Source: Chloroflexota bacterium
GTDB taxonomy: Bacteria > Chloroflexota > Anaerolineae > B4-G1 > SLSP01
DNA length: 34,139 nt
Reading direction: 5' to 3'
NCBI GenBank assembly: GCA_009908585.1
Contig: JAAAOZ010000333.1
Coordinates: 1-34,139 of the forward strand
Under the pieces are notes generated by a model. The model saw only the letters and a program-made list of their open reading frames with translations, was not told the origin of the DNA and searched no databases. The position numbers were made by a program, and so were the translations under genes. Positions 32,294-32,354 of this stretch are shown here, piece after piece (position 1 is the stretch's first letter; every line of letters begins with the position of its first letter).

Positions 32294-32354
32294 GCCCAAC
32301 GGTCGGGGTCAGCCGCGTTGCGGAGCGACGTCGGCTGCAACCCGACCGTTAGGC
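32294..32354 (-). other. Canonical integron attC (59-be) site
   Basis: Minus strand GCCTAAC-GGTCGGG-TTGCAGCCGACGTCGCTCCGCAACGCGGCTGA-CCCCGACC-GTTGGGC: RYYYAAC and GTTRRRY ends, paired arms, central part close to aadA-type attC sites as I remember them. Confidence 0.7.

Follow-up and report, generated by a model that had tools for sequence, protein, structure and literature searches.

The window analysed here is a whole contig of 34,139 bp (C428) from an Anaerolineae-type Chloroflexota MAG that comprises 2.67 Mb in 511 contigs and is 69.6% complete. The best matches of the RpoB fragment of this MAG are to Anaerolineales/Chloroflexota MAGs. The contig is a mosaic with GC contents from 0.41 to 0.72 and carries two rows of low-GC genes, both of which follow a near-identical "head" ending in ...TAATAACATG|TT and run into a shared "tail". 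In the second row, on the minus strand, a gene for a 328-aa secreted or anchored protein, a short gene for three CCHC zinc knuckles and a gene for a 187-aa protein follow one another. This report is concerned with the 61 bp between the last two genes (window 32354–32294), which read GCCTAACGGTCGGGTTGCAGCCGACGTCGCTCCGCAACGCGGCTGACCCCGACCGTTGGGC on the minus strand, exactly as quoted in the initial annotation of this DNA. The features of this region are collected in Table 1.

Table 1. Features of the second gene row and its surroundings, in window coordinates.
Feature	Position	Strand	Remarks
attC	32294..32354	minus (top strand)	short class; bottom (recombined) strand is the plus strand
R'' GCCTAAC	32354-32348	minus	
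Paired spacer GGTCGGG / CCCGACC	32347-32341 / 32307-32301	minus	
Extra top-strand G	32338	minus	bulged C on the bottom strand
6-bp stem CAGCCG / CGGCTG	32337-32332 / 32315-32310	minus	
Extra top-strand A	32331	minus	bulged T on the bottom strand
Inner 6-bp stem	32330-32325 / 32321-32316	minus	
3-nt loop	32324-32322	minus	
R' GTTGGGC	32300-32294	minus	
Zinc-knuckle gene cassette, 322 bp	32300..32621	minus	from TTAGATGG (32621) to the G of R' (32300); one ORF plus attC
67-aa ORF, three CCHC zinc knuckles	32389..32592	minus	Pfam zf-CCHC, E 1.2e-7
Upstream cassette, 328-aa secreted or anchored protein	32622..33836	minus	ORF 32795-33781; borders by L189/L191 homology
Downstream cassette, 187-aa protein	31527..32299	minus	ORF 31700-32263; L078 homology
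Array docking point ...TAATAACATG|TTAGGC	33835..33848	minus	G at 33837; first cassette joined here
Terminator-like hairpin with T-run, shared backbone	31417..31442	minus	downstream of the array; consensus scan
Terminator-like hairpin	34088-34060	minus	upstream of the platform; matches the hairpin at 31417..31442

The top strand of an attC site begins with the core site R'' (5'-RYYYAAC-3') and ends with R' (5'-GTTRRRY-3'). The site as a whole is an imperfect inverted repeat of 57–141 bp that forms a hairpin with R and L boxes. The 61-bp sequence has both ends (GCCTAAC and GTTGGGC), falls into this length range and forms a stable single-stranded fold. Counted with two flanking bases, its arms are 94% complementary over 16 nt on the minus strand, including one T–G pair; both the end motifs and this pairing had been read correctly from the start. 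A motif scan of the 34-kb window for RYYYAAC...GTTRRRY finds 32294–32354 as the sole intergenic match, and two further matches were discarded for want of an attC-like interior. The site begins 35 nt past the stop codon of the zinc-knuckle gene (32391–32389) and ends 30 nt ahead of the ATG of the next gene (32263–32261). Downstream of the site, ahead of the 187-aa gene, lies a purine-rich candidate ribosome binding site, GAGAGGAA.

For a quantitative assessment we used R1, a surrogate attC covariance model of our own build. It was trained on nine attCs beside Chloroflexota integron integrases (TIGR02249-positive) and on the aadA1 attC of R100, with the window site excluded; the training sites were chosen by the same end motifs that the window site has. 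As reference DNA we took the cassette side of TIGR02249 integrases scoring over the curated cut-off. This DNA carries co-oriented arrays of sites of the form GCCYAAC-spacer-TTGCAGCCGACG...GCGGCTGA-spacer-CCGTTRGGC. In the alignment of the ten training sites, a structure of 21 pairs is realised in 93.8% of cells, and nine pairs vary on both sides, a number reached in none of 500 shuffles. R1 works as an attC detector. On integrase-adjacent loci it returns 74 matches, nearly all on the strand directed away from intI, and the integrase-adjacent sites that were not used for training score between 22 and 82 bits. On the minus strand the window site receives 59.4 bits (E = 1.7e-14). Its plus-strand score is 31.5 bits, which corresponds to a strand preference of 28 bits, and the site ranks eighth among about 76 matches when placed with those of its relatives. 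The next match within the window has 11.9 bits. A covariance model had been proposed at the outset as a check on the site, and with R1 as the surrogate its score lies far above the background, as the next-best match in the whole 2.67-Mb MAG reaches 15.7 bits and the window site is the sole clear match.

The predicted single-strand fold identifies the two strands of the site. The plus strand folds with –31.8 kcal/mol (z = –7.6 relative to shuffles) and the minus strand with –29.9 kcal/mol (z = –6.9). None of 200 shuffles is as stable, and per nucleotide the site ranks second in stability among 50 short attCs. In the fold of the plus strand, an outermost CCGCC/GGCGG stem is followed by the R box (GCCCAAC/GTTAGGC, with one C·A mismatch), by seven pairs of GGTCGGG/CCCGACC, a G·A mismatch, a T–A pair and a bulged C. 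The inner part consists of a 6-bp stem (CAGCCG/CGGCTG), a bulged T, a second stem of 6 bp and a 3-nt loop. Both 1-nt bulges, C (32338) and T (32331), fall on the plus strand's 3' arm, opposite AAC, at a spacing of 6 bp and with T as the distal one. [quoted passage not shown] The window site has a C where G is usual; in the Vibrio site VCR2/1 the change G16>C had merely a 2.7-fold effect (PMC2727003). The same two bulges occur in all short attCs of our comparison set. Because both lie on the arm opposite AAC, the plus strand is the bottom strand by the definition of PMC5027507. This makes the minus (gene) strand the top strand, in agreement with the 28-bit strand preference of R1. Folding of the bottom strand, also suggested in the initial annotation, thus yields the R/L box geometry along with the extrahelical bases.

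The resemblance to aadA-type attCs that had been noted in the initial annotation is real. The window site belongs to the same 60–61-bp class as the sites of R100/Tn21 aadA1 and attCaadA7, and shares with them the order R''-L''-loop-L'-R', the AAC/GTT triplets, the two extrahelical bases spaced by 6 bp on the bottom strand and the 3-nt terminal loop. It is identical to the R100 aadA1 attC in 42 of 62 aligned columns. In contrast to the aadA-type sites, its R–L spacer is paired, its first extrahelical base is C instead of G, its host is a member of the Chloroflexota, and neither an integrase nor an attI of a known class is nearby. The description of the site as proteobacterial-looking, and for that reason notable in this host, was misleading because the native attC family of Chloroflexota itself resembles the aadA-type consensus. 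The attCs next to Chloroflexota integrases have the same consensus, GCCYAAC-(A..)-TTGCAGCCGACG...GCGGCTGA-...CCGTTRGGC, with the same strand logic, and single sites among them are 72–76% identical to the window attC (for example L041:7707–7776 and L059:1106–1174). This aadA-like consensus is native to Chloroflexota integrons, and the window site is no proteobacterial import. Apart from its paired central spacer, it is an ordinary member of the Chloroflexota family. The chromosomal sites of the phylum have a bubble of 3–4 nt beside the R box and are located beside intI, whereas the window attC has no such bubble and sits on a plasmid-like element without intI. As a separate observation, an integron from another Chloroflexota class (G279, L046:9608–9667) contains an attC almost identical to that of R100 aadA1, GCCTAACAATTCATTCAAGCCGACGCCGCTTCGCGGCGCGGCTTAACTCAGGCGTTCGGC. 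This site follows a cassette gene for a RibD_C/DHFR-like protein of 185 aa (Pfam E 3.9e-14), not aadA.

[quoted passage not shown] In the window attC this feature is missing: GGTCGGG and CCCGACC are fully paired, and the sole G·A mismatch comes 7 bp after the R box. For this reason the site cannot be called a textbook attC, although it shows every other attC property that we tested. The number of ungapped pairs following the R box is 7 in the window site and 0–2 in 81 comparison attCs (61 sites and 20 more from close relatives). Specifically, the R-box helix is not continued at all in 79 of the 81, and is continued by 1 bp in one and by 2 bp in another, so that the closed spacer is the only case among 82 sites. 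Its right arm, CCCCGACCGTTGGGC, conforms to the family, for instance to ACCCGACCGTTAGAC in L059:1106–1174. The left spacer reads GGTC where the relatives have AAC, which may be the kind of multi-base change that is given by templated correction of a quasi-palindrome. Nearly all 81 Chloroflexota attCs (L041–L059, L168–L187) place an A after the AAC of R'' and a C before the GTT of R', giving an A·C mismatch and a small bubble; the window site is the exception. This conserved mismatch matches the conserved and functionally unexplained G beside the AAC of VCR ("G122", PMC2727003).

A functional consequence of the closed spacer can be estimated from mutagenesis of VCR2/1. [quoted passage not shown] The mutant in question, mut21-VCR, is similar to the window attC in that its spacer is fully complementary while its extrahelical bases are kept. 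It is an engineered 129-bp Vibrio site assayed with IntI1, whereas the window attC is a natural site of 61 bp. Since a normally unpaired spacer is fully paired, and in view of the drop seen with VCR2/1, attenuation is to be expected, and the window attC is probably attenuated rather than dead. With both extrahelical bases intact and no UCS, it is a natural test case for the question as to whether the bubble is needed outside the IntI1/VCR system.

Homology to other contigs defines the borders of the three genetic units around the site. Window 33837–32618, which covers the 328-aa cassette, is 98.2% identical at the nucleotide level to L189:31–1251 and L191:163–1383, and a protein 98% identical to its product is encoded on the microbial-mat contigs L189–L191. 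The homology extends from the G of the docking GTTAGGC (33837) to GTTAG (32618–32622), and the flanks are unrelated on both sides. On L191 a different long attC precedes this cassette and other cassettes follow; L189 ends in the tail backbone that is common to the arrays of the window. The 187-aa cassette is 89% identical in nucleotide sequence to L078:1431–2085, starting from the shared GTTGGGCGG (32300 onward). The homologue on L078 (91% amino acid identity) is preceded by the right half of a different attC. A more distant homologue of the 187-aa protein (58%) is followed by an attC of 26.1 bits, and 40 genomes of relatives gave no match to this protein. The zinc-knuckle protein has a homologue (P0001, 71% identity) on L072–L074, whose gene is followed by an attC of 38.9 bits and belongs to a series of small genes in the same orientation, among which R1 has further attC matches. 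On L072 this gene is alone in its unit, which is delimited by GTTAGAC on one side and by its own attC on the other. In the window, the attC likewise lies 3' of a co-oriented ORF, with G|TT borders at 32618–32622 and at GTTGGGCGG.

Judged by these alignments, the 328-aa, zinc-knuckle and 187-aa cassettes are shown to be separate units joined exactly at G|TT. The proposal that the low-GC islands are true gene cassettes is borne out, as two of them recur elsewhere with the homology breaking at exactly this point. The region can be annotated as three discrete integron cassettes whose borders are exact, and the odd zinc-knuckle gene as a mobile cassette of 322 bp. On L189–L191 (ERR2407577/8), a related element, four other genes (coding for 180, 248, 109 and 141 aa) take the place of the zinc-knuckle and 187-aa cassettes. 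This is direct evidence of cassette turnover on the platform.

The other recombination sites of the array are less regular. Between the 328-aa and the zinc-knuckle genes R1 finds no canonical attC, and 32600–32775 has no significant fold (z = +1.09). A canonical site in this interval was rejected, though a border exists there. The last 173 nt of the 328-aa cassette (32794–32622) must, by the position of this border, hold a recombination site of its own that would be AT-rich and atypical. What is visible in this stretch are just ATCTAAC / GTTTAGT-like ends and a 5-bp AGCTG/CAGCT stem. The 187-aa cassette ends in a long-class attC (approximately 31682–31527) with R'' and the L region intact and with R' replaced by the backbone sequence |TTCATCGTCGC. 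R1 gives just 11.7 bits in this tail (31616–31682). We dismissed this match as one that pairs the wrong partners; alignment with long-class sites puts the real site at about 31682–31527. At window 925–970 only the right half of an attC is left (..GCCGCGCAGCTTTAAGCAAAGCT|GTTGGGCGG), and the same is seen at L189:1862–1890. The R''/L'' half is gone at both junctions, which therefore cannot fold.

We conclude, with a probability of roughly 0.88, that 32294–32354 is an integron attC that closes the 322-bp triple CCHC zinc-knuckle cassette within an integrase-less array; the array is carried by a mobile, plasmid-like element in this Chloroflexota MAG of the Anaerolineae type. The central claim of the initial annotation, that of an attC at a cassette junction, is thereby upheld. 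A complete integron, in which intI adjoins the array, is absent from contig C428 and from the 69.6%-complete MAG. No protein of this MAG scores over the TIGR02249 cut-off; the Xer-like protein on C92 stays below it. C428 encodes no tyrosine recombinase, and the PF00589 matches in the MAG are limited to C92 (Xer-like) and C160. Among the 401 genomes sampled from the phylum, 32 encode an integron integrase over the curated TIGR02249 cut-off. Of 41 close relatives, 15 encode one as well, and these include one of the three genomes that belong to the same genus; R1 attC matches are present in 21 of the 41. In the genus, family and order of the MAG itself, integrases and attCs are common.

By the established mechanism of integrons, the site would work as follows. 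When single-stranded, the bottom (plus) strand would fold into a hairpin that displays the R box, the L-box region and the extrahelical C and T. An integron integrase would bind this folded strand and exchange strands at the G|TT of R', which puts the presumed crossover on the top strand between G32300 and T32299. Because no integrase is found on the contig or in the 70%-complete MAG, the enzyme would have to act in trans, and the frequent integrases of the same genus, family and order are a candidate source. Excision of the zinc-knuckle cassette would leave an empty junction in which the 328-aa cassette is joined directly to TTGGGCGG.

The absence of an integrase from contig and MAG assigns the array to the CALIN/SALIN type. 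These terms denote at least two attC sites within 4 kb (CALIN) or a single attC (SALIN), both without intI (PMC4889954; PMC9024848). Going by strict model calls the array would count as a SALIN, whereas the border evidence makes it an array of three cassettes. It differs from a CALIN in that one site passes R1 while the others are truncated or atypical. Integron integrases also insert cassettes at non-att 'attG' (GWT) sites outside of integrons (bioRxiv 10.1101/2022.09.11.507474). The window is comparable to both situations, with attC cassettes that have no integrase nearby and a G|TT (GWT) join to non-integron DNA. As with attG insertions, the cassettes stand behind a resident promoter region, which would allow their expression. 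In contrast to attG insertion, three copies of the platform employ TAATAACATG|TT as their docking sequence, which has the look of a dedicated site rather than of a random attG.

Several other explanations of the 61-bp sequence have to be considered. A chance palindrome is excluded by the R1 score together with the cassette borders. The hairpin could instead be a transcription terminator or an mRNA-stabilising structure of the zinc-knuckle gene with no relation to integrons, and a very stable GC-rich hairpin directly past a stop codon is what such an element would look like. We consider this highly improbable. There is no T-run, and the terminator scan passes over the attC yet calls the two real terminators that bracket the array (34088–34060 and 31442–31417). 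Asymmetric bulges, AAC/GTT ends and a strand preference of 28 bits point specifically to attC, and the homology of the neighbouring cassettes breaks inside the site, at G|TT. Hardly more probable is an assembly artefact, by which low-GC cassettes of another organism would have been joined to this contig through a conserved attC sequence. The GC mosaic (0.41–0.72) and the two contig ends, both of which lie in repeats matching internal regions, would fit a misassembly. On the other hand, the short attC is unique in the MAG and the conserved ends of attC sites are too short to mislead an assembler. Moreover, three platforms have the same head-cassette-tail plan, and in L189, from an independent assembly, the 328-aa cassette is likewise connected to this tail backbone.

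A more serious contender is that the site is a fossil, once a real attC and now inert, with a spacer that has been "perfected" into a plain hairpin and that serves at most as a stem-loop between cassettes without any exchange. This reading differs from our conclusion in present activity alone, and we regard it as a real possibility, if clearly the less probable of the two. The closed spacer is unique among 82 sites, and UCS pairing lowers recombination 27-fold (PMC2727003). Neighbouring sites of the arrays are damaged (the right half stands alone at 970–925, and R' is lost at both tails), and the 69.6%-complete MAG has no integrase. On the opposite side, the site is high-scoring and has kept its R box, its L region and its two extrahelical bases intact, while a 27-fold drop amounts to attenuation and not to loss. 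The host lineage frequently encodes integrases. Recent exchange is indicated by the 328-aa cassette next door, of which a copy with 98% identity stands in another context.

The closed spacer also invites a more speculative interpretation, which we rate as unlikely. Rather than decay, the AAC to GGTC change could be a conversion of the left spacer to the complement of the right arm, templated by a strand switch within the quasi-palindrome, and might function as a "lock" that slows excision and thereby keeps the zinc-knuckle cassette on an integrase-less platform. All attC bottom strands of the element are on the plus strand. If this strand were the one that enters recipients, the bottom strands might be delivered as recombination-ready hairpins to the integrons of the host, and the element would act as a cassette shuttle.

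The integron cassettes of the window are inserted into a platform that exists in several copies. The TAATAACATG|TT junction recurs in array 1 (at ~1650) and on contig C427, which makes three platforms with the same head-cassette-tail plan. The copy on C427 (L079, G000, 3480–4500) reads ..TTAATAACATG|TTCCGGCGG and is followed by a low-GC DUF6994 gene (3643–4287). Behind this gene lies a long attC that ends in ..CATCCCG|TTCCGGCGG, with the same 9-mer at both borders. The left and right halves of this attC do not pair, which suggests a hybrid site. A search for the platform pattern AACGTATAATG-N(20-50)-TAATAACATGTT found no match in genome contigs or viral contigs, and the sole match in metagenomes (L080) was rejected as a chance occurrence inside a coding region. 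The attC core pattern has no match in viral contigs either. Nucleotide BLAST of the attC against plasmids returned nothing useful because attCs are too divergent for this method.

Both ends of the contig are repeats of internal sequence, with homology that continues to the last base: 1–136 matches 31408–31543 (95.6%), and 33862–34139 matches 1747–2024 (93.8%). Instead of an element with two arrays, the contig could represent one turn of a circle of ~32 kb, to which a second variant of one and the same array locus from the population has been added. In array 1, the join between the last attC and the backbone is G|TTCATCG (118–145). In array 2 (31518–31560) the same backbone join contains 16 extra bases, TCGGTCGGTAGCGACA, and reads A|TTCATCG.
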